Part shown: positions 1-13,215 of the stretch, piece after piece
How positions within the stretch are numbered: position 1 is the first letter of the stretch
How the letters are laid out: every line of letters starts with the position of its first letter
NCBI RefSeq assembly: GCF_026626665.1
Contig: NZ_JAPNKE010000002.1
Location: 1,357,204-1,421,203 of the forward strand
Origin: Nannocystis pusilla
GTDB lineage: Bacteria > Myxococcota_A > Polyangia > Nannocystales > Nannocystaceae
Length of the DNA: 64,000 nt
Direction: 5' to 3'
Notes under the pieces: generated by a model
Told to the model about the DNA's origin: nothing
The model's database searches: none
What the model saw: the letters and a program-made list of their open reading frames with translations, nothing else
Translations under genes and position numbers: made by a program

Positions 1-1164
1 AAGCTGCTGCGCGTCGAGCACAAGGGCGAGCAGTCGCAGGTGCTCGAGCAGGACGCCGGCACCGAGTTCTCCTACAACAACAGCTTCGTGTGCATCGAGG
101 CCAGGACGCCGTACCGGCCGCCGCGGATGACCCCGCGGCCGACGGTGCGGGGCGTGCAGACGGCCACCGTGGTCGGCCCGCCCAACGAGGAGATCTACGT
201 CGACGAGCACGCGCGGGTGAAGGTGCAGTTCCACTGGGACCGCAGCGACAAGTTCAGCGAGGACTCGTCGTGCTGGGTCCGCGTCAGTCAGCTGTGGGCC
301 GGCAACTCGTGGGGCGCGATGTTCATCCCGCGGATCGGCCACGAGGTGCTGGTCGACTTCATCGAGGGCGACCCGGATCGCCCGGTGATCGTCGGCCGGA
401 TCTACCACGGCCTCAACCTGCCGCCGTACCCGCTGCCGGAGCAGAAGACGAAGAGCACCATCAAGTCGGACACCTACCAGGGGGCCGGCTACAACGAGCT
501 GCGCTTCGAGGACCAGAAGGGGATCGAGCAGATCTTCATGCACGCGCAGCGCAACATGGACATCCGCGTCCTGCACGACCGGATGGAGAGCGTGCTGCAC
601 AACCGCCACCTGACCGTCGGCAGCAACGACGGCGGGGCCAAGATCGGCGACTACTACGAGAACATCTGGCGCGACCACCACTGGCGCATCGATCGCAACC
701 GCAACGAGCACGTCGGCGGCGACCTGCGGATCCGCGTCGGCGGCATCGACGGCGTCGGTCACGTCGACACCGTCATCGAGGGCAACCGCCGCGAGCTGGT
801 GATGCAGAGCCAGAGCCTCGAGGTCAAGGCCGACCTCAAGATCAAGATCGGCGGCGGTCACCACGAGCAGGTCCTGGGCGACGTCCACCGCAAGGTCACG
901 GGCCTGTTGTCGGTGGAGGCGCTCAAGGAGGTCCACTACAAGTCGTCCAAGGTCGTGATCGAGGCCTCGCAGGGGCTGACCATCCGCGGCCCCGGCGGCT
1001 TCATCACCATTCATTCAGGCGGCATCGACATCGTCGGCACGCTGGTGAAGATCAACAGCGGCGGCTCGGCGCTCACCGGCACGGCCGCCGGCCCGCTGAA
1101 CCCCGACGAGGCCAAGCCGGTCGAGCCCACCAAGCCCGACCCGGCCGACAGCGGCGGCATCTGA
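1..1164 (+). CDS. vgrG: Type VI secretion spike protein VgrG, C-terminal part (5' end lies outside the window)
   Basis: Frame 1 is open from base 1 and gives KLLRVEHKGEQSQVLEQDAGTEFSY...IYHGLNLPPYPLPEQKTKSTIKSDTYQGAGYNELRFEDQKGIEQIFMHAQRNMDIRV, which matches the VgrG gp27/gp5-like conserved region. A PAAR gene follows immediately. Confidence 0.85.
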   Translation, partial: KLLRVEHKGEQSQVLEQDAGTEFSYNNSFVCIEARTPYRPPRMTPRPTVRGVQTATVVGPPNEEIYVDEHARVKVQFHWDRSDKFSEDSSCWVRVSQLWAGNSWGAMFIPRIGHEVLVDFIEGDPDRPVIVGRIYHGLNLPPYPLPEQKTKSTIKSDTYQGAGYNELRFEDQKGIEQIFMHAQRNMDIRVLHDRMESVLHNRHLTVGSNDGGAKIGDYYENIWRDHHWRIDRNRNEHVGGDLRIRVGGIDGVGHVDTVIEGNRRELVMQSQSLEVKADLKIKIGGGHHEQVLGDVHRKVTGLLSVEALKEVHYKSSKVVIEASQGLTIRGPGGFITIHSGGIDIVGTLVKINSGGSALTGTAAGPLNPDEAKPVEPTKPDPADSGGI

Positions 1165-1179
1165 CCCGAGGGACACGTC

Positions 1180-1806
1180 ATGCCGCCCGCAGCCCGCATC
1201 ACTGACATGCACGTGTGCCCGGTGCCGACCCACGTCGGCGGCCCGGTGGTCGTCGGCGAGACCTCGGTGCTCATCGGCATGATGCCGGCCGCGCGCGAGG
1301 GCGACAAGCTGGTGTGCGCGACCGGCCCCGACAGCGTCGCTCGCGGCGAGCCGTCGGTGATCATCGGCAACAAGCCGGCCGCGCGCCTCGGCGACCCGAC
1401 CACCCACGGCGGCACGATCGTCGTCGGCTGTCCGACGGTGATCATCGGCTCGTCGGCTCAGGTCGAGGCGCTGCGCACCGACAAGCCCTTCTGCGAGGAG
1501 TGCGAGAAGAAGCGCAACACCACGCTGATCCTCGACCACCGCTACCACGACGACGATCCGGTGCAGGAGGCCGAGTACGAGGTCGAGCTGCGCGACGGCA
1601 CGATCCTCAAGGGCAAGCTCGACGCCAACGGCCAGGCCCGCATCGAGGGCGTGCCGCCCGAGCGGGCCCGCGTCCGCTACGGCCCCGACGTGCGCACGTG
1701 GGAGCGCAAGGACCAGACGCCGAACCCGACCTTCAAGGAAGACTTCTCCGACAGCGACGCCGACGCGCTCGTCGACGCCGTCACCGGCCAGGGACAGCAG
1801 CGATGA
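1180..1806 (+). CDS. PAAR-domain protein (T6SS spike tip) with a ~100-aa C-terminal extension
   Basis: PAAR motifs are present (ITDMHVCP, GEPSVIIG, PAARLGD). It starts 16 nt after the VgrG stop. Its stop overlaps the next start codon (ATGA). Confidence 0.85.
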   Translation: MPPAARITDMHVCPVPTHVGGPVVVGETSVLIGMMPAAREGDKLVCATGPDSVARGEPSVIIGNKPAARLGDPTTHGGTIVVGCPTVIIGSSAQVEALRTDKPFCEECEKKRNTTLILDHRYHDDDPVQEAEYEVELRDGTILKGKLDANGQARIEGVPPERARVRYGPDVRTWERKDQTPNPTFKEDFSDSDADALVDAVTGQGQQR

Positions 1807-3206
1807 GCGGCGGCGAGTACATGCGCGCCATCACCGACGTCGGTGAGTGGATCTGGGGCCTCGTCCGCGGCGGGTTCAACGAGCAGCAGTCGATCAGCCA
1901 GATCATCGTCGACGCCATCATCGGCATGATCCCCGTGGTCGGCGACGTCACCGCGGTGCGCGACCTCCTGGCGGTGGTCATCCGCCTCGCCGACCACCCC
2001 GAGCGGCGCCAGGAGACCATGCAGTGGGTCGAGCTGGCGATCTGCCTGTTCGCGCTGATCCCGGTGGCGGGCGGCGCGATCAAGGGGGTCGGCCGGCTGC
2101 TCGCGCGGGTCGGTCGCAACGCCGCCGACGCGGCGCCGGTGCTGCGCGAGGCGATCGAGCTGCTCAACCGGCTCGGCAACGGCAACGCGGTCCGCTTCAT
2201 CCGCGAGCTCGACCTGTCGCGCTACACCGCCGAGCTGCAGCGCCACTTCCGTCAGCTGGTCGGGCGCGTGACCACCACGGTCGACGCGATCCTGCGCCGC
2301 GGCCGGTGGGTGCTGCCGGACAGCATGACGGAGCGCCTGCGTCAGCTGCGAGCGGCGATGCAGGAGCTGCTGGCGCTCGGCGATCGCATGATCCCGCAGG
2401 CGGTGCGCGACCTGAATCAGTGGCTGCACACGGTCCAGCGCCACATCTACGCCGGGTCGTACCACGAGATCCCGTCGAGCCTGCGCGCCGAGACGCGGGA
2501 GCTCGAGCGCGGCCTCCTGCGCGAGCGCCGGCTGCCGCGGCCCGACGAGCTGCCGTTCCCGCCGTCGACGATCGCCAACTACCGCCACCGCGTCCCGTGG
2601 CCCGACCTGCGCCAGGGCGGCTTCCACAACCCGTCGCACAACCCGTACCGCAACATCCGCACCTTCAGCGGAAACCTGCAGGCGGTCGCGCTGCGGCACC
2701 CGCGGAAGATCTACCGCGTGATCGAGAACGCCGACGGCCGCGCGGGCGCCTTCTGGTCGCTCGAGAAGCCGGCGAGCGGCCGCGCGTGGCGCGAGGACTA
2801 CGCGGTGCTCGAGTCGTGGAACAGCGACGGCCACTACATCGAGTTCGAGATCCCGCCGAACATGACGCTCTACGTGTGGCAGGGCAAGGTGGCGAGCCAG
2901 GTCGAGACCGACGCGGCGAAGGCGACCTACGGGCAGGTGCTGAACGGCGGCGCGCAGCAGCTGCTGATCGACCTGCGCCACCCGAGCAACGCGTGGGCGA
3001 TGAGCCACGTCGAGGCGCTGCCGCTGCACCCGACCGGCTGGCGCGATCACAGGGGCGTGAACGTGCCGAACGAGCAGACCCGTGCCATCCTGCTCGGGCA
3101 CGCCGAGCGCGCCGAGCGGGTCGGCGAATTCACGGCGGTCACGCGCGTCACGGGCGCGGCGGTCCGCGGCTCGCAGGCCGAGGAGAGGCGGCAGAGGCAG
3201 CAGTGA
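1803..3206 (+). CDS. Hypothetical protein, putative T6SS cargo effector/toxin (467 aa, no domain I recognise)
   Basis: The ATG at 1803 overlaps the PAAR stop. Its position after VgrG-PAAR is typical of an effector. The N-terminal region has hydrophobic helices (IIVDAIIGMIPVVGDVTAVRDLLAVV, LAICLFALIPVAGGAIKGV). The upstream part of ORF 1215..3206 is Arg-rich off-frame noise. Confidence 0.55.
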   Translation: MSGGEYMRAITDVGEWIWGLVRGGFNEQQSISQIIVDAIIGMIPVVGDVTAVRDLLAVVIRLADHPERRQETMQWVELAICLFALIPVAGGAIKGVGRLLARVGRNAADAAPVLREAIELLNRLGNGNAVRFIRELDLSRYTAELQRHFRQLVGRVTTTVDAILRRGRWVLPDSMTERLRQLRAAMQELLALGDRMIPQAVRDLNQWLHTVQRHIYAGSYHEIPSSLRAETRELERGLLRERRLPRPDELPFPPSTIANYRHRVPWPDLRQGGFHNPSHNPYRNIRTFSGNLQAVALRHPRKIYRVIENADGRAGAFWSLEKPASGRAWREDYAVLESWNSDGHYIEFEIPPNMTLYVWQGKVASQVETDAAKATYGQVLNGGAQQLLIDLRHPSNAWAMSHVEALPLHPTGWRDHRGVNVPNEQTRAILLGHAERAERVGEFTAVTRVTGAAVRGSQAEERRQRQQ

Positions 3207-4087
3207 CGGAGCTCCAGACCATCGTCCGGCCGTTCTCGCCGGCCGAGCTCGCTATCGACGCCACCACCCTCGCGCAGGTGTTCTATCGCCTGCGCCGATA
3301 CTCGTCGCTGACCTACGTCAAGCGCTGCACCGAGCTCGTGCAGAAGTTCAGCGCCGGCTTCGACGCGTGGGCCCGCAAGTCGGGGCCCGATCACACCCAG
3401 TTCGCCCGCAAGGCGCTGCAGACGGTGTATCCGCCGCTGGCGGCGCTCGAGCAGGTGCCGGGCCTTCTGCTCGGCAACCAGAAGACGCGGGCCTACGACG
3501 CGCTGATCCAGGCCGGCTTCCTCGCCGAGCTGCTCGGCCACGGCTTCGACGGCGGCATGCGCTGGGAGAAGTTCGGCTACAACTACGGCGAGCGGCCGAG
3601 CGTCGGCCTGTTCGCGTGGGCCGAGAAGGCGGTGGTGATGGCGGCGCAGATGCAGCGCACCGCCGAGGCCAAGTGGTCGCACACGCTCATGGCCCTGCAG
3701 CGCCCGGCGCCGCCGCACGCCCACCTCCAGCCGATGCCGCCGGCCGACGGCGTCGTCGTCGACCCGGACGAGGTCGTGCCGGTGACCGGGGTGTGGGTGC
3801 CGCTCGACGTGCCGAACGGCTGCCCGAACTACCTGGTCGAGGGCGTGCCGGCGCCGAAGCTGACGGTCGAGACCCAGCGCGTCGACTCCGAGGGCTACCC
3901 CGGCGACCCCGAGAACCCGCCGATCGCCGCGCGCACCGACTACGTGTACGGCGAGGTGCCGACCCGCTGGCAGCTGGCGTGGGACGACATCCGCTACCGC
4001 GCCGGCGTCGAGATCGACGAGCCCGAGTTCCTCGACGAGGAGACCGAACTCCCGGCCTGGCCGCCGGCCCATCCGCCTTCGCCATGA
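3203..4087 (+). CDS. Hypothetical protein, putative cognate immunity protein
   Basis: The GTG at 3203 overlaps the effector stop (GTGA). Coding-like composition runs from VTELQTIVRPFSPAEL to the stop. The upstream part of ORF 1847..4087 is Arg/Gly-rich noise. Confidence 0.5.
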   Translation: MTELQTIVRPFSPAELAIDATTLAQVFYRLRRYSSLTYVKRCTELVQKFSAGFDAWARKSGPDHTQFARKALQTVYPPLAALEQVPGLLLGNQKTRAYDALIQAGFLAELLGHGFDGGMRWEKFGYNYGERPSVGLFAWAEKAVVMAAQMQRTAEAKWSHTLMALQRPAPPHAHLQPMPPADGVVVDPDEVVPVTGVWVPLDVPNGCPNYLVEGVPAPKLTVETQRVDSEGYPGDPENPPIAARTDYVYGEVPTRWQLAWDDIRYRAGVEIDEPEFLDEETELPAWPPAHPPSP

Positions 4088-4983
4088 GCGCGAGCCCTGC
4101 CAAGAGCCCTCCGTACGCCGGACCGCCCAACCTCGAGGGACCCGCGCCGCGACTGGTCGTCGAGGTGCTGTGGGGGCCCGAGCAGGGCAAGAAGGCGGTG
4201 ATCGCCGCGGGCGGGGCGGTCACGGTCGGGCGCGACGCGGCGGCCGGCCTGTGCCTGGCCCACGACGAGGCGCTGGCGCCGATCCACCTGCAGATCGAGT
4301 GGGACGGGCGGGTCGCCGCGGTGCAGGCGCTGGTGAACGAACGGACATGTCTCGACGGACAGCCGATGCGCGAGGGCAGGAGCGGCCACGGCGGCTGGGT
4401 GCGCGCCGGCGCGTCCGACCTGGCGCTGGCGATCGAGCGCCACACGCGGCCCGATCCGCCGCCGACGCCGGCGAGGGTGGCCGCGGCCGCGCCGGCGATC
4501 GCGGCCCTGCGGGCGCTGCCCGGCCGGCTGTTCGCGGTCGCCGACGCGTCGCGCGACGAGCGGGTGCGCGTGCTCCTGCGCGAGTCGCCGGCCCGCTACC
4601 GCTCGCTGTTCGACGGCTGGCAGGGCGACGCGATCGCCGAGTCTGCGCCGTACCTGGTCGAGCTCGGGCCGCCGCACCCGGAGCTGCTCGAAGATCTGGT
4701 GGTCGAGGGCTGGCACACCGACGACGCCCGACGCGACGGCGACGGCGGCTGGGCGATCTTCCTGTCGGTGCCCGACGGCCGCGAGCTCGAGGCGGTGCGC
4801 CGCCACCTGCGCAAGTTCCTCATGGTCGAGCTCGATCGCGAGAAGGTCTACTTCCGCTTCTACGACCCGCGGGTGCTGCGGGCGTTCGTGCCGACCTGCA
4901 CCGCCGCCGAGCGGCGCGAGCTCCTCGGCGACATGGGGTGGCACATCACCTGTCCCGAAGGACTGCTGAGCTTCCGCGCCTGA
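4084..4983 (+). CDS. FHA-like domain / DUF4123 (T6SS adaptor-type) protein
   Basis: The ATG overlaps the upstream stop (ATGA). The N-terminus is FHA-like (VTVGRDAAAGLCLAHDEALAPIHLQIEWDGR...NERTCLDGQPM). The C-terminus carries the DUF4123 signature (WAIFLSVPDGRELEAVRRHLRKFLMVELDREKVYFRFYDPRVLRAFVP). Confidence 0.6.
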   Translation: MSASPAKSPPYAGPPNLEGPAPRLVVEVLWGPEQGKKAVIAAGGAVTVGRDAAAGLCLAHDEALAPIHLQIEWDGRVAAVQALVNERTCLDGQPMREGRSGHGGWVRAGASDLALAIERHTRPDPPPTPARVAAAAPAIAALRALPGRLFAVADASRDERVRVLLRESPARYRSLFDGWQGDAIAESAPYLVELGPPHPELLEDLVVEGWHTDDARRDGDGGWAIFLSVPDGRELEAVRRHLRKFLMVELDREKVYFRFYDPRVLRAFVPTCTAAERRELLGDMGWHITCPEGLLSFRA

Positions 4984-5105
4984 GCGGCCCGCGCGAGGCA
5001 GTCCTGCGAAGCTGCTGAGCTTCCGCGCCCGGGCGGCGCGCTCGGCAGTCCCGAAGCGCTGCCGAGCTCCCGCGGCCGAGCGGCGCGCGCGAGGTCTCGG
5101 TCCAC
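4950..5105. repeat. Imperfect tandem direct repeats (~45-50 bp unit, about 3 copies) just downstream of the DUF4123 gene
   Basis: GACTGCTGAGCTTCCGCGCCTGAGCGGCCCGCGCGAGGCAGTCCTGCGAAG recurs with variation as GCTGCTGAGCTTCCGCGCCCGGGCGGCGCGCTCGGCAGTCCCGAAGCG and GCTGCCGAGCTCCCGCGGCCGAGCGGCGCGCGCGAGG. Confidence 0.45.
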
Positions 5106-5718
5106 GCGCGGCGGAGGACGACCGCATCCGCCGGGTCGGGCCCCCGTTCGTGGCCTGCGAGGGCCGGCCCGCGGGCGCCGGACTCGACCGGTCGCGGCGC
5201 AACTTCACGCCGCGGGGCTTCCGACTCGCGGGTCCGCCGTCCGACTGCGTGCGAGCGTGACCCGCCGCGCACCTGCCGGAGTGACGCGGCCGGGCCCCGG
5301 CGGCCCCGTTTGCGCCGGGCCGAGCCACCCGGCCGGAGGCCCCGGGCTGCGCTCGCGCGACCCGGCGCTACGCTTGCCGCTGCGTGCCCGACCCGCGGCC
5401 GACAGCCGAGCGCGTGTTCTCCTGCCCGCCGGAGCCCCCCTTCGCGGGCCGGCCGCGGCCCCGCGGCGCTCGCACCGACGTGGCGCTCGGGACAGGTCGA
5501 GGGGCGAGGCGGGCCGGCGGAGCGCAGGCCGGGGCGGGCGACGCGGACCTGCGCGAAGGGACAGGTCGACGAGACCGGCGCGACCGCGACAGGAGCGATC
5601 TGTCCAGAGAGACATCTGTTCGCCGGCCGGTCCGCGGGCCCACGCCCGACGCGGCGAGCGACATGACCGATCGGACAGGCCTTCATCCGACCGCGGTCGC
5701 GCGCGAGGAGGCCGGGCC

Positions 5719-6699
5719 ATGAAGCTGCGGACGCGGGTGGCGGCGGCGCTGTTCGTGGTCGCGGCGCCGGTCCTGATAGGGGTGAGCGCGCTGCCGGAGC
5801 CGCTGCTCGGACGCACCGGCGCGCTGGCGCTCGGCTTCGGCCTCGGGATCTCGGCGGCGCTCGCGGTCGCCTGGCCGCTGCTCGGACGGATCCGCCAGCT
5901 CGCCGCGGCCGCCCGCGACGCCGCCGAGAGCGGCCATCGCCGCGAGATCGAGGTCGGCGGCGACGACGAGGTGGCCGAGCTGGCCCACAGCTTCAACGCG
6001 GCCGGCCGGGCCGTGCGCGACCACCTGGCCCGCGGCGAGCGGCGCAACGCGGCCCTGCGCGACGTCGTCGTCGACGCCACCCACGACGTCATGCTGCCGC
6101 TGACGGCCCTGCACGGCCACCTCGGCGACCTCGGCCCGGGCGCGGCGATCGCCGAGGTCCACCACATCGCCGGGCTGCTGCGCAACCTCGCGGCCGCGGC
6201 CGCGCTGGCGACCGAGGTCGCGCCGGCGCGGGCGGCGATCGACCTCAACGCGGTCCTGCTGCGCGTGGTGGTCCGCGCGACCGCGCCGGCGCGCAAGGCG
6301 GGGGTCGAGCTGGTGTCGGCGGTGCCCGAGGCGACGGTGTGGATCGACGGCGACGCCTTGCTCGTCGAGCAGGCGATCGTCAACGTGATCGACAACGCGG
6401 TCGCCTACAACTACCGCGGCGGCCACGTGGCCGCGGTGCTGGTCCGCCGCGGCCACGACGGCTTCGCCCTGCGCGTCGAGGACGACGGCCCGGGGGTGAG
6501 GCCCGACGAGCTGCCGCGCCTGACCGAACGCTACTTCCGCGGCGCCCACGGCCAGCAGGTCCGACCCGGCGGGCGCGGGCTCGGCCTCCACGTCGTCGCC
6601 CGCGTGGCCGAGGCCCACGGCTTCTCGCTCGAGCTGGCCCGCGGCCCCTACGGCGGGCTGTGCGTCGAGCTGCGCGGCCGCCGGCGCGCGACCCGGTGA
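5719..6699 (+). CDS. Sensor histidine kinase (two N-terminal TM helices, HAMP, HisKA, HATPase_c)
   Basis: MKLRTRVAAALFVVAAPVLIG TM; H-box region (DATHDVMLPLTAL); N/G boxes (IVNVIDNAVAYN, DDGPGV, GGRGLGLHVV). No response regulator is adjacent. Confidence 0.8.
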   Translation: MKLRTRVAAALFVVAAPVLIGVSALPEPLLGRTGALALGFGLGISAALAVAWPLLGRIRQLAAAARDAAESGHRREIEVGGDDEVAELAHSFNAAGRAVRDHLARGERRNAALRDVVVDATHDVMLPLTALHGHLGDLGPGAAIAEVHHIAGLLRNLAAAAALATEVAPARAAIDLNAVLLRVVVRATAPARKAGVELVSAVPEATVWIDGDALLVEQAIVNVIDNAVAYNYRGGHVAAVLVRRGHDGFALRVEDDGPGVRPDELPRLTERYFRGAHGQQVRPGGRGLGLHVVARVAEAHGFSLELARGPYGGLCVELRGRRRATR

Positions 6700-6783
6700 G
6701 CGGAAGGACATGTCCGCGGCGGCATGTTCGGAAGGTCATGTCCGCAGGTGCATGTCCGGAAAGACATGCTCCTGCGGACAGCC

Positions 6784-7521
6784 TCAGCGGTTGTCGAGCG
6801 CGACCCGGCGGAAGGACCCGCACCCGCCGGCCGACGGGGCGCCCGGCGTGGCGAAGCACGGGATGCCCGGGTCCGGCCCGTCGACGACGACGTTGCAGCG
6901 CCAGCTCCAGCCGTCGCCGACGGCGACGTCGTCGGGGACGGTCGAGACGAGCCGGAACGTCGCGCGCTGGGCCGGCGGCAAGCTCGTGACCTCGCGCGCG
7001 TCGCGGTCCTCTGCGTCGAGGATGACGTTGCCGCCCGCGGGCGCGAAGCCGACGAGGCCGACGTCGTGGAGCGCCAGCGGCACCTCGCAGCCGTTGTGCA
7101 GCTCCACGACGGCCCGCGGCGGGGCGCCGCGGATCGCCCGCAGCTCGACGCCGAGGCAGTTCACGACCCGGCGCCGCTCCTCCTCCGCGAACTGGCGCTC
7201 GACCTCGGCCCGCCGCGCCTCGGCGGCGCGATCGTCGAGCACGACCGCGACGATGTAGCCGCCCGCCAGCAGCACGTGCATGACGACGGGCCCCCAGGTG
7301 CGCCGGCCGACCCACAGCATGAGGAAGGTCGTCAACAGCGCGTAGGCGACGAGGATCTCGAGCGTGAAGACGGCGGCGAGGCCGAGGAGAACGGACTCAC
7401 CGCGCGGCAGGCCGAGCAGGACCTCGCCGAACACGTAGAGGTAGAGGACGACCAGCGCCACGAGGGCCAGGCCGTGGAGCTGCCAGGCGCGACGCGTGTC
7501 GCGGCGGTCGGGCGCCGTCAC
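6784..7521 (-). CDS. Hypothetical membrane protein
   Basis: The GTG start at 7521 overlaps the stop of the upstream lipoprotein gene (GTGA). TM helices LHGLALVALVVLYLYVF, LLGLAAVFTLEILVAYALLTTFLMLWV, VVMHVLLAGGYIVAVVL. The 5' part of ORF 6784..7680 overlaps the neighbouring gene and is discarded. Confidence 0.5.
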   Translation of the reverse strand: MTAPDRRDTRRAWQLHGLALVALVVLYLYVFGEVLLGLPRGESVLLGLAAVFTLEILVAYALLTTFLMLWVGRRTWGPVVMHVLLAGGYIVAVVLDDRAAEARRAEVERQFAEEERRRVVNCLGVELRAIRGAPPRAVVELHNGCEVPLALHDVGLVGFAPAGGNVILDAEDRDAREVTSLPPAQRATFRLVSTVPDDVAVGDGWSWRCNVVVDGPDPGIPCFATPGAPSAGGCGSFRRVALDNR

Positions 7522-8162
7522 TGCTGCGGCGGGGCGGCCGCCAGCGCGTTGCGGAACTCGGGGGTCTGGGCCAGCTTGACCGAGCCGTCGAGGGTGGCGT
7601 CGCCGAAGGCCTGCAGGAAGTTGCTCTCCTCCTGGCTGCGGCCCCAGCGGCTGCTCTTGCCGGCGATCGGGCCCTGCCACAGCGTCGTGCTGTTGCGGTC
7701 GATGAGCCAGCCCTGGGCCATCAGCGCGGCCTGGTAGGTGTTGCCCTCGACGATCCAGAACTGGTCGAGCTGCAGCTGCAGGGTGTGCGTCGCGGCCTGC
7801 GGATCGGCGGTGACCGGGAAGCCGAGCGCGGCGAGCTCCTTGGCGAACACGTTGCGGACGTACTCGGTCGGGACCTGGCCGCCGGCGGCGTTGTAGACCG
7901 GCAGGTCGGGGTTGGCGTCCTCGCTGACCCCGAGCAGGTGCGGATCGGTCACCTGCCGCTTGTCGACGATCTGGGCGATGAAGATGAGGGTGCCCGGGGG
8001 GACCGCCGCGAGGCCCGCGACCTTCGACGGATCGGCCTTCTCGCTCGGCGAATAGACCAGCGGGAAGGAGATGATGTCGGGCGACGAGGCGCAGGCGCCT
8101 GCGGTCAGCGCGGCGGAGAGGAGGCCGCAGGCGAGGAGCGAGGAGCGAGCGCGGTGCTGCAT
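7518..8162 (-). CDS. Hypothetical lipoprotein
   Basis: Signal peptide plus lipobox MQHRARSSLLACGLLSAALTAGAC. Coding-like composition. Confidence 0.6.
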   Translation of the reverse strand: MQHRARSSLLACGLLSAALTAGACASSPDIISFPLVYSPSEKADPSKVAGLAAVPPGTLIFIAQIVDKRQVTDPHLLGVSEDANPDLPVYNAAGGQVPTEYVRNVFAKELAALGFPVTADPQAATHTLQLQLDQFWIVEGNTYQAALMAQGWLIDRNSTTLWQGPIAGKSSRWGRSQEESNFLQAFGDATLDGSVKLAQTPEFRNALAAAPPQQ

Positions 8163-8362: not shown

Positions 8363-9995
8363 ATGGTCGCGGTGGTGCTCGTCAACCTCGACGCGATCGA
8401 CTGGAAGTCCCTGCGCCACGCCTACGGAGAGGCGAGCGACGTGCCGAAGCTGATCCGCGCGCTCGTCAGCGATCACCCCGGCAAGCGGGAGGGCGCGCTC
8501 GACGCGTTGTTCTCGACGATCTGGCACCAGGGCACGGTGTACTCGGCGAGCCCCGCCGCGGTGCCGTTCCTGGTCGAGCTGCTCGAGGCCGACCAGCAGG
8601 AGGATCTGCCGGCGATCCTCGAGCTGCTGGCGCACCTCGCCACCGGCACGCCCGACGAGGACGCCGAGGCGCTGCCCAACGCCGCCACCGCCGCGCGCGA
8701 GGCCGTGTCGAAGGGGATCTCCGTCTACGCGCGCCGCCTCGGCCACCCCGAGCCGGCGGTCCGCGTGGCCGCGGCGTACTTGCTCGGGCTGTTCGCGGTC
8801 GAGGCGGCCCGCGCCCCGCTCGCCGCGGCCGTCGAGGACGACTCCGAGCCGGCGGTCCGCGCCGTGGCAGCGTTCGCGCTCGGCTGCATCGCCGACCCGG
8901 CCCGCGCCGACGCGCTGCGCGAGCGGCTGGTCGACATCAGCGAGCACCCCGCGGTGCGCCTCTACGCCGGCCTCGGCCTGTCGCGCGGCGGCGCCCCTGG
9001 AAGGCCCGCAGTTCGCCGCGCTCGCCGAGTTGGTCGAAGACGTCGATCTGTTCGGCCAGCTCGACGAGCTCCACGACAACGCCGCGCGCATGAGCTACGG
9101 CCCGCTCGCCGACGGCCTCCTGCGCCTGCCCGCGGCGGCGCGCCTGCGCCTGGCCCCCGCGCTCGGGCGTGCCCTCGAGGCGGTCCGCGGCCGCGACGCG
9201 CTCGGCCTGGCCACCGCGCTGCTCGGGCTCACCTTCGCCGACGCGAGCGTGCCCGCGGGGGCCGGCGCGGAGGTCCTCGGCGAGGTCCAGCGCCAGGTGC
9301 TGGCGAGCCTCGTGCGCGCGCCGGCGGCCTGGCGCTACGCCAACATCGGCACCGCGCTGGCCGACATCGGCCTCGCGCCGGAGCTGACCGAGCGCGCCCC
9401 GCTGGCCGAGTGGCTCGGCGTCGACGCCGGCGAGCTGGCCGAGGACGACGAGGACGACGAGGGCGACGAGGCCGGCGAGGGCGACGAGGACGACGAGGAC
9501 GGCGGCGTCGACGTCGAGGCGCCCGAGCCCGACCTCGGTGAGCTCGACCGGATCGGCCGCTTCGTCGCCTGTCTCGACGGCCAGGACTGGCGCGAGGCCC
9601 GGCAGTGGTTCGCCTTCTATCAGCAGATGCGCGGAGTCGCCCGCGTCGAGCCGCCGGCGATCGGCCGCTACTTCGGCGCCCACGCCAACCTCGAGGCCGG
9701 CTACTGGCTGTACGACCGCGAGCTGTCGCGCTCCCTCGGCACCTGCGTCCCGCTCGAGCACATCCGCCTGGCCGTCGGGCGCAAGGACTCCGACGATCAG
9801 GTGGCCCTGCGGATCCGCGTCGACGACGGCTGCCTCGACGCCGTCCTCGCCGCGATCGTCCGCCACCAGGACCGCGTCACCCCGACCGACTTCACCGCCC
9901 TGGCGATCGACCTCATCGGCGCCGCCCCCGAGGTGTTGCTGGAGACCGGCCGAGCCCAGCGCGCCCGCCTCGGTCGCGCTGCCGGCAGCGCCTGA
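8363..9995 (+). CDS. HEAT-repeat (PBS-lyase-like) protein with an acidic linker; apparent -1 frameshift near 8990-9000
   Basis: HEAT-like repeats run to ...EHPAVRLYAGLGLSRGG in the frame of ORF 8363..9541. Sensible sequence then continues only in the frame of ORF 9030..9995 (APLEGPQFAALAELVEDVDLFGQLDEL...). The junction lies in a GCCCCTGG homopolymer run. Confidence 0.5.
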
Positions 9996-10980
9996 CGGGC
10001 AGGGCCGCCGCGTCGGGCCGTCCATCCCATTGAAGAGCAGGAGACGGGCCGTCGCCGGGGGCCCCGCGGCGGTCCGCGTCTTGGATGGTGGCGGGGCCGT
10101 CGGGCCCGCGTGGCTGTCACTCTTGGCGACGCGAACGACGGATGGGTGGCGTCGCGTCGGCCCGACGGGTCGGGCGGCCGTCTCCTACTTTTAGGGTCAA
10201 AGAGGGCAGAAGGTCTGCGTCGCCGTGGCTTGGGGGCCCGTCGGGTCCGTATGGCCGTCTCCTACTTTTATGGTGGGAGAGGGGGACTGGCCGGTCGACC
10301 TCGCATGGCCGTGCACTACGGGCAGAGGGAGACGGCGCCTGGCGGGACCATGCCAGTCGGTCGGGCCCGGTGGCTGTGAACCGCTGGATCGATGGAGGCG
10401 GCTCCTGTCACCGACGGGACCGCTGAATTGCCGCTCCTTTCGCTCGCTACATGCCCTTCCGCGAGCGCCGGGGGCCTGCGAGGGTGGACCACCACGAGGG
10501 GTTCTTCCGGGGGTGCCGCCCCGCATGTCTCCGGGGACATATGGTGACAGTCGCGGCGGGCGGCAATCCTCGGATGTCTCTCGGAACATGTGTCCTTTTC
10601 GCCGCGAAATATTTTCCTGCACCTCGCGCGCCAGCCGCTGGCGGACGGGCGCCGCGGCGCTCTCGCGGGTCCGGCGGTTCGACCGCCGGGCCCCGCGAGC
10701 GCGGACGGGGTATGGCGAATCATCGCATGTCTCGAGAGACATCCCAACGCCGAGGCCGGCGGCTGCGGCGGTCCGCGCGCGGCGAGCTCGGCGGTCCGCA
10801 GCATTCGCATGACTCGAAGGACATCGCCATAGAAGTGTTCCTGCGTTCGAGTCGCAGGTGCGGGTGTGCGGCGGCCTGGTCCAAAGACCTTGCACCTCCG
10901 CAAGCCCGACCGCGGCTGCAGAGTGTGCACGGCGCGGCGCACTATCGCCGGCGACGCGTCGCGCATAGAGTCCGGCTCCC

Positions 10981-13215
10981 ATGCGTAGGATTGTTCTGCC
11001 TCTCCCCCTCTCGGTCGCCCTCGCGACCCTCGCCGCTTGCGGCGACGATGCGACCGTCGACACCACCGCGTCGACCTCCGAGACCTCGACCACCGACGAC
11101 TCCACCAGCACGAGCCCGGGTCCGACCAGCGACGCGCCGACCACCGGCGTGCCGACCACGACCGACGCGACGACGTCGACGAGCACGACCGACGCGACCA
11201 GCACGACGACGGACGACACGACGACCACCACGTCGACGACGGACGACACGACGACGACGACGACCGACACGACCGACACGACCACCGCCGCCGACAACTG
11301 CGGCGACGGCGTGATCGAGGATCCCGAGGTGTGTGACGGCGCCGCGCTGGCCGATCAGGACTGCGTCAGCCAGGGCTTCGACAGCGGCACCCTCGCGTGC
11401 GCGGCCGATTGCAGCGCGTTCGACATCAGCGGGTGCGTCCTGGCCTCGTGCGGCAACGGCTCGATCGAGGGCGAAGAGGCGTGCGACGGCGAGGACCTGG
11501 CCGGGCAAGACTGCGTGTCGCAGGGCTTCGAGAGCGGCACCCTGACGTGCATGGAGAACACCTGCGTGTTCGAGCTGGGCGGGTGCTTCACCTGCGGCGA
11601 CGGCAACATCTCGGGCACCGAGGTGTGCGACGGCACCGAGGTCGGCGGCGAGGACTGCGTCAGCCAGGGCTTCGAGACCGGTCAGATCGCCTGCGCAGCC
11701 GACTGCAGCGCGCTCGACACCAGCGACTGCAGCACCTGCGGCGACAACGCCCTGAGCGGCGCCGAGGAGTGCGACGGCGCCCTGCTCGGCGCCGCCACCT
11801 GTCAGACGCAGGGCGCCGACTACGGCACCCTCAAGTGCTCGGCCGACTGCGGCTTCGACCTCTCGGCGTGCATCACCGCCGTCTCCGAGATGGAGCCGAA
11901 CGACGACGGCATGGTCGCCACCAGCACCAACGACTTCAGCGCCGCCAACGCCAACGGCCCGTTCACCGGCGACACGCTGATCAAGGCGAAGATCACCCCG
12001 GTCGGCGACGACGACGTGTTCGCCGTGCAGAACACCGGCGACGGCTACGCCACGCTGCGGCTCGAGACCTTCAGCATCGAGGGCCCGGGCACCTGCACCA
12101 CCATCGACACGGTGATCGACATCCGCACCGCCGCCAACGTGCTCCTCGTCACCGACGATCAGAGCGGCATCAACAACTGCTCGCTCATCACCAACTACCC
12201 GCTGGCGCCGGGCGAGACCGTCTACGTGCGGGTGTACGACTACCTCGACAACACCGTCATCGACAACTACCTGCTCGACATCCAGCTCGACCCGGTCATT
12301 TGCGGCGATGGGGCGCTCGGCCCCGGCGAGCAGTGCGACGACGGCAACGGGGCCAACGGCGACGGCTGCAGCGACGTTTGCAAGGTCGAGGGCGCGACCG
12401 CCGAGATCGAGCCCAACAACACCAACGCGCAGGCCGACGGGACCGGGATCGTGTCGACCGGCAACTCGCTGTTCGCCGGCGCGATCACGCCGGTCGCCGA
12501 CGTCGACCGCTACCGCCTCGACCTCGCCGCCGCGAGCTTCCTGCGCCTCGAGAGCTTCACCGCGCTGAACGACTGCGCCGGCATCAACACGGTGCTGCGG
12601 CTGTTCGACAGCAACAACGTCTCGATCATCGCCGACACCGCCAACTCGGGCATCAGCAACTGCTCGTCGCTGGTGTTCCCGGTGCCCGCCGGCACCAGCT
12701 ACATCCACCTCGAGGAGAACGGCAACAACGCCGTCATCAACAGCTACTTCCTCCAGGCCGCGGTGCTGTCCGACGCGGGCGCCGAGACCGAGCCGAACGA
12801 GACCCTCGCGGCCGCCAACGTCAACCTGCAGAACGGCTCCGACCTGCAGGTGTTCGGCGACCACGCGGTCAACACCGACTCCGACTACTACCGCATCGAC
12901 GTCCCGGTGGCCGGCAGCTCGCTGCGCCTCGAGATCATCGAGGGCGACCGCACCGTCGAGACGTGCGAGAGCAACGGCGTCGACTCGCGCCTGACCCTGT
13001 ACACCGCGGGCGGCGTCGAGATCGCCAACGACGACGACGACGGCCGCGGCTTCTGCTCGATGATCGACGGCACCGGCAACACGCCGCTGGACGCCGGCGC
13101 GCACAACCTGGCCGCCGGGACCTACTACGTCCAGGTGCGCGCGTCGACGTTCTCGCAGAACGGCGCCGCCGGCCAGTTCATCTACCGGCTGGCCGCCACC
13201 GTGCGCAAGCCGTGA
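10981..13215 (+). CDS. Secreted lipoprotein: Thr/Ser-rich linker, about 6 Myxococcus cysteine-rich repeats, three pre-peptidase C-terminal (PPC)-like domains
   Basis: Signal peptide plus lipobox (LATLAAC). Repeated CGDGxxxxxExCDG...DCxxQGF units. EPNDD / EPNNT / EPNET ... YY modules typical of PPC domains. Confidence 0.8.
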   Translation: MRRIVLPLPLSVALATLAACGDDATVDTTASTSETSTTDDSTSTSPGPTSDAPTTGVPTTTDATTSTSTTDATSTTTDDTTTTTSTTDDTTTTTTDTTDTTTAADNCGDGVIEDPEVCDGAALADQDCVSQGFDSGTLACAADCSAFDISGCVLASCGNGSIEGEEACDGEDLAGQDCVSQGFESGTLTCMENTCVFELGGCFTCGDGNISGTEVCDGTEVGGEDCVSQGFETGQIACAADCSALDTSDCSTCGDNALSGAEECDGALLGAATCQTQGADYGTLKCSADCGFDLSACITAVSEMEPNDDGMVATSTNDFSAANANGPFTGDTLIKAKITPVGDDDVFAVQNTGDGYATLRLETFSIEGPGTCTTIDTVIDIRTAANVLLVTDDQSGINNCSLITNYPLAPGETVYVRVYDYLDNTVIDNYLLDIQLDPVICGDGALGPGEQCDDGNGANGDGCSDVCKVEGATAEIEPNNTNAQADGTGIVSTGNSLFAGAITPVADVDRYRLDLAAASFLRLESFTALNDCAGINTVLRLFDSNNVSIIADTANSGISNCSSLVFPVPAGTSYIHLEENGNNAVINSYFLQAAVLSDAGAETEPNETLAAANVNLQNGSDLQVFGDHAVNTDSDYYRIDVPVAGSSLRLEIIEGDRTVETCESNGVDSRLTLYTAGGVEIANDDDDGRGFCSMIDGTGNTPLDAGAHNLAAGTYYVQVRASTFSQNGAAGQFIYRLAATVRKP

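Follow-up and report, generated by a model that had tools for sequence, protein, structure and literature searches.

What does a 467-amino-acid (aa) protein do when its gene lies between a spike gene and a candidate immunity gene of a predatory myxobacterium, and how would it be delivered? We addressed this question for the first 4,983 nucleotides (nt) of a 64,000-nt stretch of the Nannocystis pusilla genome (contig NZ_JAPNKE010000002.1, positions 1,357,204 to 1,421,203; hereafter, the window), where five genes form a type VI secretion system (T6SS) cassette. Taken as a whole, the cassette is probably an orphan spike island whose cargo is a NAD(P)+ glycohydrolase (NADase) docked on a C-terminal extension of the PAAR protein, which is the best explanation we have. 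The features on which this reading depends are as follows.

1 to 1164, plus strand: vgrG (tssI), C-terminal 387 codons, matching TIGR03361, Gp5_trimer_C, and Phage_base_V
1169 to 1174, plus strand: Shine-Dalgarno-like GAGGGA, 5 nt 5' of the PAAR start codon
1180 to 1806, plus strand: PAAR protein, 208 aa (core at residues ~1-100 plus C-terminal extension), PF05488 at 2.5e-22
1516 to 1803, plus strand: PAAR C-terminal extension, residues ~113-208, proposed effector docking domain
1803 to 3206, plus strand: cargo effector, 467 aa, ATG overlapping the PAAR stop (ATGA), 221 homologues, third-position GC content (GC3) 0.97
1803 to 2507, plus strand: effector N-terminal helical delivery domain, residues 1-235, invariant motif WxxG...G...Q..DA...P..G...RD
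1899 to 2096, plus strand: hairpin of hydrophobic helices (residues ~33-98), similar to DUF4112, that may insert into membranes or be bound by a chaperone
2520 to 3077, plus strand: predicted toxin domain with a fold like that of TNT/Tne-type NAD(P)+ glycohydrolases, residues ~240-425
3203 to 4087, plus strand: immunity protein, 294 aa, GTG start overlapping the effector stop (GTGA), Imm71-like at residues 24-127 and Imm72 at 182-274
4084 to 4983, plus strand: adaptor/chaperone, 299 aa, ATG overlapping the immunity stop (ATGA), FHA-like at residues 27-96 and DUF4123 at 149-278

The window begins inside vgrG, whose 5' end lies outside it, and the five genes were read from the listing of open reading frames (ORFs), their translations, and the junction sequences. 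Because the sequence is approximately 72% GC and contains many spurious ORFs, we checked the coding frames by GC3, which was 0.94 to 0.98 in each proposed frame of the five genes. The high-GC3 frame switched at approximately 1800, 3200, and 4080, and an independently written GC3-based gene caller returned the identical five intervals. These results confirm the five consecutive plus-strand genes of an earlier first-pass annotation, which had also described the last four junctions as 4-nt overlaps. Three of them are (ATGA at 1803-1806, GTGA at 3203-3206, and ATGA at 4084-4087), but the vgrG stop codon (1162-1164) and the PAAR ATG (1180) are separated by a 15-nt gap, in which the Shine-Dalgarno-like motif can be read directly. 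The chaining of the last four genes by start/stop overlaps fits coupled, stoichiometric translation, to judge from the junctions themselves. Gene order and overlaps are repeated in four Nannocystis genomes and eight metagenome contigs, and 4-nt overlaps are also present between the VgrG, effector, and immunity genes of Enterobacter; because of this recurrence, the arrangement is not attributable to chance. Given that some relatives fuse the extension to the effector, we considered a frameshifted single PAAR-effector gene, and rejected it because the ATGA split is kept in the same four genomes and eight contigs and the GC3 switch is clean.

Profile searches identified the spike components. The VgrG portion matched TIGR03361 at 3.4e-99 (model positions 311-513 of 513), Gp5_trimer_C at 2.3e-28, and Phage_base_V at 1.6e-15 in a frame with a GC3 of 0.98, and the full-length homologue in the closest relative (locus L001) matched Phage_GPD at 1.3e-83; the defining domains of VgrG/TssI are thus present in the C-terminal half in the window together with the L001 homologue. 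The window VgrG carries no C-terminal docking extension. In the PAAR protein, PF05488 covers residues 16-81 (79.3 bits versus a cut-off of 27), and GC3 is 0.95 in both halves of the gene. With the further profile matches to Imm72 and DUF4123 and the recurring overlaps, the earlier proposal of a coupled operon encoding a T6SS spike and its cargo was upheld: the cassette is a genuine five-gene T6SS "ammunition" operon of a Nannocystis-like myxobacterium, and we are highly confident in its division into spike, effector, immunity, and adaptor genes.

The effector had been described as a protein without a nameable domain in the position that polymorphic T6SS toxins occupy, and both statements hold. 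We detected 221 homologues at E ≤ 1e-3, in Nannocystis, other Myxococcota, Fibrobacterota, Burkholderiales, and Enterobacterales (Enterobacter, Yersinia mollaretii), and a genome scan added Holophaga, Pantoea, Cedecea, and others. Every name supplied by the sources was "hypothetical" or "uncharacterized protein," and among the matches listed the only precomputed Pfam domain was Hcp, in one protein (P0081). When the effector, 40 of its homologues, and 89 remote carriers of the toxin domain were scanned with Pfam and NCBIfam, neither effector domain could be placed in a curated family; there were sub-threshold DUF4112 matches and one sub-threshold TNT match. In almost every locus examined, the homologues are encoded beside or fused with VgrG, PAAR, or Hcp, so the search for neighbors that the first-pass annotation had proposed returned a consistent link to the T6SS. 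The Enterobacter orthologue lies inside a core T6SS cluster (TssM-TssA-TssF-TssG-TssJ-VgrG-effector-Imm71/72), with 4-nt overlaps on both sides of the effector gene, and in a metagenome-assembled genome (MAG) of a Fibrobacteraceae bacterium an orthologue forms a fusion with Hcp, with three Imm72 genes in tandem after it.

In the Fibrobacteraceae MAG (L084, 8001-13374), Hcp, the docking domain, and the effector form a 766-aa polypeptide, and the three Imm72-only genes (324-325 aa) resemble an immunity array. In Enterobacter (L081-L083, 5452-11898), a truncated VgrG fragment of 409 aa comes after the effector-immunity pair; in L083, moreover, a VipA/VipB junction takes the place of the upstream VgrG, and the effector is preceded only by an ORF of 83 aa. 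The fragment and the replacement suggest recombination-driven cassette exchange. The best N- and C-domain matches fall in different places in Holophaga foetida (L030; N-domain at 10616-11275, C-domain at 8781-9290) and in an Enterobacter sp. (L044), corresponding to two effector copies or to rearranged modules in one locus.

What the effector does is most directly addressed by its C-terminal domain. The AlphaFold2 model, for which 40 sequences were aligned, was confident at residues ~240-425 (predicted local distance difference test >90) and has the ADP-ribosyltransferase (ART)-like TNT fold. A structure search of the effector had been recommended by the first-pass annotation; when we compared the model with the PDB using Foldseek, the Tse6 toxin domain ranked first. 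The best structural matches were all glycohydrolases (Tne2, Tse6, Rhs1-CT, RDTND, AfNADase, and a TNT protein). Invariant or near-invariant positions in the domain are G290, R305, W318, W329, R330, A334-V335-L336, W359, G361, Q366, Q378, G382, G383, and Q386, among which R305, W318, W329-R330, W359, Q366, and G382-G383-x-x-Q386 form the toxin signature. The R / WR / Q / GGxxQ core is retained in 69 more remote carriers. Searched as a profile, the toxin domain matched 718 representative proteins (clusters) at E ≤ 1e-3, in some of which the domain lies at the C-terminus of a VgrG-PAAR fusion, a DUF4280 protein, or a DUF6861 protein, and one remote member (P0241) combines a toxin-profile match of 2e-21 with a co-located sub-threshold Pfam TNT match of 3.8e-4. 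In a 1141-aa metagenomic protein (P0186), VgrG (Phage_GPD, OB-fold), PAAR, and a C-terminal toxin core are joined in a single all-in-one "specialised" cassette.

Rhs1-CT, Tne2, and Tse6 are NAD(P)+ glycohydrolases shown by experiment; they have little sequence in common, share one strictly conserved Gln and one aromatic residue (Gln1452 and Phe1386 in the Rhs1-CT site), and are neutralized by immunity proteins unrelated to one another (PMC10539506). To judge from the motif, candidate counterparts of these residues in the effector are Q386, Q366, W318, and W359. On the strength of the predicted structure and the motif, the toxin is probably a TNT/Tne-type NAD(P)+ glycohydrolase. A domain with an ART-like fold could instead be an ADP-ribosyltransferase acting on protein or RNA, like Tre1, Tre23, TreTu, and TreThr, in which case NAD+ would serve as co-substrate rather than as target. 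ARTs depend on a catalytic Glu, whereas the toxin domain contains no invariant Asp or Glu; the absence of an invariant acidic residue argues against an ExE-type transferase and fits a Gln-based NADase better, and the conserved GGxxQ agrees with TNT-type NADases, in which one Gln is strictly conserved (PMC10539506). Given also that the closest structures are glycohydrolases and not transferases, we consider a transferase unlikely.

The gene downstream of the effector had been proposed as the immunity candidate, and the evidence agrees: its product scored above the Imm72 cut-off (36.7 bits versus 25) and just below that of Imm71 (24.5 bits versus 27; Pfam PF15602, PF15584), and its WDDIRY sequence matches the WxDxRY motif of Imm72 (PMC3482391). 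A homologue of the immunity protein lies downstream of the effector in 64 of 80 loci. The protein has neither a signal peptide nor a hydrophobic segment; as a presumably cytoplasmic protein, it would place the target of the toxin in the cytoplasm as well.

These immunity families also introduce another possible identity for the toxin. Imm71 and Imm72, which are often fused, were described as neighbors of Ntox48 in acidobacteria and beta- and gammaproteobacteria, and Ntox48 is a predicted BECR-fold RNase with conserved R, [RK], Q, and Q (Zhang et al. 2012, PMC3482391). The C-domain could therefore be Ntox48 itself and act as an RNase. The published distribution of the Ntox48-Imm71/Imm72 pairs (PMC3482391) is the same as that of the effector family, which occurs in Holophaga, Burkholderiales, and Enterobacterales, and the residue pattern matches R305, R330, Q366, and Q386, so that Ntox48 pairs and the cassette, compared by published description, agree in immunity families, phyletic pattern, and conserved residues. 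They differ in fold: BECR is the prediction for Ntox48, while the cassette toxin is modeled as a TNT-type NADase. We regard an Ntox48 RNase as very unlikely and retain the glycohydrolase assignment.

The first-pass annotation had likened the helical, hydrophobic N-terminal ~120 aa of the effector to delivery domains. The helical and hydrophobic character stands, but the delivery domain is longer, extending over ~235 aa. This N-domain is helical and highly conserved and resembles the VgrG-tethering "clade domain" of Acinetobacter Tse15. It includes two hydrophobic segments (residues ~33-62 and ~74-98; Kyte-Doolittle maxima of 2.05 centered at ~43 and ~86), and 39 of 40 family members gave sub-threshold DUF4112 matches, that of the window effector being weak and covering residues 34-93. 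By analogy with Tse6, the hairpin may help the toxin cross the target inner membrane and may need shielding in the producer cell.

Killing might instead be due to these helices, as a membrane-depolarizing or pore-forming element beside a non-catalytic C-domain. The two hydrophobic helices with their Kyte-Doolittle values, the similarity to DUF4112-like membrane proteins in nearly the whole family, and the high conservation of the helical N-domain would all be expected of such a protein. A soluble immunity protein without a membrane segment would be unusual against a pore former, the C-domain has an enzyme-like invariant polar signature, and the N-domain resembles a tethering domain. In addition, the C-domain behaves as a toxin module, occurring alone at the C-termini of the VgrG-PAAR, DUF4280, and DUF6861 carriers. 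A pore-forming effector is thus very unlikely, and the NADase reading is kept for what follows.

How the effector is attached to the spike is suggested by the PAAR protein, whose ~100-aa C-terminal extension had been read as a second effector or an adaptor surface. No Pfam family covers the extension, which is predicted to contain a ~55-residue five-stranded TTR/Ig-like beta-sandwich followed by a terminal helix, with structural matches to TTR- and CnaB-like domains. Used alone as a query in a homologue search limited by its word index, it returned seven proteins; we therefore searched loci by tblastn and scanned metagenomes from a motif seed, examining the pairing of extension and effector in both directions, in genome loci found through the effector (n = 80) and in metagenome loci found through the extension motif (n = 72). 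The extension domain was immediately upstream of or fused to the effector in 77 of the 80 genome loci, and an effector N-domain lay ≤400 nt downstream of the motif in 68 of the 72 metagenome loci, two further ones being too short downstream to judge. In the genome loci, the carrier of the domain was the C-terminus of a full VgrG at 34 loci (Pfam-confirmed for L059 and L026), the N-terminus of the effector itself at 13 (mostly Fibrobacterota), PAAR at four (all Nannocystis), a small free-standing ORF at six, another carrier of 200-700 aa at seven, and a carrier cut by the contig end at 13. Free-standing proteins of 118-120 aa that consist of the docking domain alone also exist, the Hcp fusion includes it, and in P0052, P0066, P0068, and P0081 a segment homologous to PAAR residues ~113-208 precedes the effector.

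Because of the pairing in both sets of loci, we read the extension as the dedicated docking module of this effector and not as a second toxin, an assignment that we consider likely. PAAR proteins frequently carry C-terminal toxins, and a segment that no Pfam family covers might be one. The extension would then be a toxin in the form of a small five-stranded sandwich and helix resembling TTR and CnaB domains, with no second immunity gene in the cassette, also occurring as a VgrG tail, a free protein, or the N-terminus of an effector, and almost always accompanied by one effector family; we consider this extremely unlikely. Of the two functions suggested earlier, the adaptor surface stands and the second effector does not. 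A specialist might find it notable that a single small docking domain occurs on PAAR, VgrG, Hcp, a free-standing protein, or the effector, in each case together with this one effector family.

Other sequences near the docking domain were also observed. A CEEC motif at 1492-1503 (PAAR residues 105-108) falls within the linker that joins the PAAR core to the docking domain; the motif is kept in P0121, the sole close PAAR-extension homologue examined, and is absent from VgrG-borne and free-standing versions. In a Polyangiaceae MAG (L006, 6846-7649), a 267-aa ORF matching no Pfam family lies between a DUF4123 gene and a free-standing docking-domain gene, and L008 and L009 (~6991-8004) encode docking-domain carriers of 326-337 aa that likewise match no Pfam family. 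These proteins may be further uncharacterized loading components.

The last gene of the cassette encodes a DUF4123 protein (PF13503, 8e-25, 87.8 bits versus a cut-off of 25.8) within the vgrG/effector cluster, with additional matches below cut-off to Yop-YscD_cpl (FHA-like, 1.4e-5) and far below cut-off to the NCBIfam Tla1 chaperone (7.7e-7). It is comparable to Tap-1/TEC, which loads TseL in Vibrio cholerae, and to Tla1, in being a PF13503 protein of a vgrG-effector cluster; unlike them, it has an N-terminal FHA-like domain, and its gene follows that of the immunity protein instead of separating vgrG from the effector gene. The effector has a DUF4123 gene beside it in each of the four Nannocystis genomes, in two Polyangiaceae MAGs (there on the upstream side), and in metagenome contigs. 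The absence of DUF4123 from proteobacterial cassettes indicates that the adaptor is a lineage-specific accessory and is not generally required. Fusions of FHA (PF00498) to PF13503 are common in Myxococcota (Nannocystis, Hyalangium, Cystobacter, Sorangium), which hints that effector loading may be tied to Ser/Thr-phosphorylation signaling, like Fha/TagH of other T6SSs.

From these components we propose the following mechanism. PAAR would cap the VgrG trimer and display the TTR/Ig-like sandwich at its own C-terminus. On this sandwich the ~235-aa N-domain of the effector would dock non-covalently, probably in the manner of VgrG1-Tle1 and VgrG15-Tse15, through edge-strand augmentation, so that one effector would ride the spike tip. 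The DUF4123 protein would act in the producer as a loading chaperone that is not secreted and probably shields the hairpin (residues ~33-98). After firing, the hairpin would help the C-terminal domain into the target cytoplasm, where depletion of NAD(P)+ would stop growth. Q386 of the GGxxQ motif is the proposed catalytic Gln, NAD would be bound by R305 and R330, and the proposed aromatic ligands are W318/W359. In sister cells, the cytoplasmic Imm71-Imm72 protein would bind and occlude the toxin.

Several considerations weigh against this scheme. Neither the effector alone nor the family profile gave a significant sequence match to solved structures (noise only), and neither the effector nor 40 homologues matched Pfam TNT (PF14021) or Ntox; the NADase call rests on predicted structure and motif logic. 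The one statement on Imm71/Imm72 in the literature links them to Ntox48, a predicted BECR RNase (PMC3482391). The case for docking of the effector on the extension is built on fused genes, synteny, and analogy. The hairpin contains charged residues that are invariant (D37, R53, D54), and these residues, with its modeled position within a helical bundle, make membrane insertion uncertain. Orthologous proteobacterial cassettes lack DUF4123, and in the window the DUF4123 gene follows the immunity gene instead of preceding the effector. The roles proposed for the hairpin and for DUF4123 are accordingly tentative.

Among the closest known systems are the NAD(P)+ glycohydrolase effectors Tse6 (Tne1)/Tsi6/EagT6 of Pseudomonas aeruginosa and Tne2/Tni2 of P. 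protegens. Tse6 and Tne2 combine PAAR, transmembrane segments, and toxin in one polypeptide with prePAAR and an Eag (DUF1795) chaperone, whereas in the cassette PAAR is separate, the effector is cargo, and the chaperone is a DUF4123 protein. There is no detectable sequence similarity between the cassette effector and Tse6 or Tne2, and the Imm71/Imm72 immunity protein is unrelated to Tsi6 or Tni2. We rejected membership in the prePAAR/Eag class: the effector has no PAAR domain, the cassette has no DUF1795 gene, and PAAR is a separate gene. In Serratia marcescens, the toxins Rhs1-CT(Db10)/RhsI1 and Rhs1-CT(1036) ("Tne3/Tne4," PMC10539506) are housed in Rhs cages fused to PAAR; the 467-aa cargo contains no Rhs repeats.

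For docking, the comparison is with Tse15-VgrG15 of Acinetobacter baumannii (PMC11461821) and VgrG1(TTR)-Tle1 of enteroaggregative Escherichia coli, in which the sandwich is on VgrG, while that of the window is on PAAR. The cassette effector has no Rhs cage and no autocleavage site, its docking is proposed by analogy, and it lacks the defining features of the Tse15-type Rhs clade-domain class. The domain that defines WHIX effectors is bipartite, spans ~450 aa, and contains a WHxxxH motif (PMC12135965); we rejected this class also, the effector having no WHxxxH and an N-domain of ~235 aa with a different invariant motif. Overall, the cassette works like a hybrid that combines a Tne-type NADase, TTR/Ig-like spike-appendage loading, and a Tap-1/TEC-type adaptor. 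Each single principle is already known, and the effector is probably a further Tne subgroup with Imm71/72 immunity.

The genomes closest to the window come from Nannocystis species; its proteins share 92-100% identity with those of L001, and the adaptor is 96% identical to an N. pusilla protein. The first-pass annotation had suggested looking upstream for the rest of vgrG and a T6SS core locus. In near-identical L001 we found a complete vgrG, but it is preceded by unrelated genes on the opposite strand, and no core locus lies beside the cassette there or within ~8 kb downstream in the window, where a histidine kinase gene is found 3' of the cassette. Because of these flanking genes, we conclude that the cassette is an orphan or auxiliary vgrG island and not a core T6SS locus.

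The 735-nt spacer that follows the cassette is approximately 80% GC without frame bias; it gave no Rfam match in a search of window positions 1-8000, and no promoter or terminator was found by scans. A 47-nt tandem repeat at 4952-5089 (2.9 copies, 80% matches) begins in the last 32 nt of the adaptor gene, the 3' end of which is thereby reiterated twice in the spacer, and two Nannocystis loci (L002, L004) have different repeats at the corresponding position. Approximately 6 kb downstream, positions 11311-13212 encode a probably secreted protein of 634 aa, unrelated to the cassette, in which a PPC (pre-peptidase C-terminal) domain and, weakly, DUF4215 were matched.

The toxin-profile clusters extend across Myxococcota, Fibrobacterota, Acidobacteriota, and Beta- and Gammaproteobacteria. 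It is possible, rather than probable, that they belong to an undescribed and widespread class of T6SS cargo effectors, defined by a ~90-aa TTR-like dock, a clade-like tether with a hairpin, and a fifth TNT-type NADase lineage neutralized by Imm71-Imm72. If so, the movement of the docking domain among PAAR, VgrG, Hcp, a free protein, and the effector would be a natural experiment indicating that one small domain suffices to specify cargo loading, and the 2012 assignment of Imm71/72-linked toxins as "Ntox48 = BECR RNase" would be wrong. A large family of "hypothetical proteins," including genes in core T6SS clusters of Enterobacter, Pantoea, Cedecea, Burkholderia, and Paraburkholderia, gains a checkable activity, NAD(P)+ hydrolysis, and an immunity partner. 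The compact pair of docking domain and tether could explain cargo specificity and could be a handle for engineered T6SS cargo. Current understanding of T6SS biology is not overturned by these results, which add a predicted weapon to the poorly characterized T6SS armory of predatory myxobacteria.

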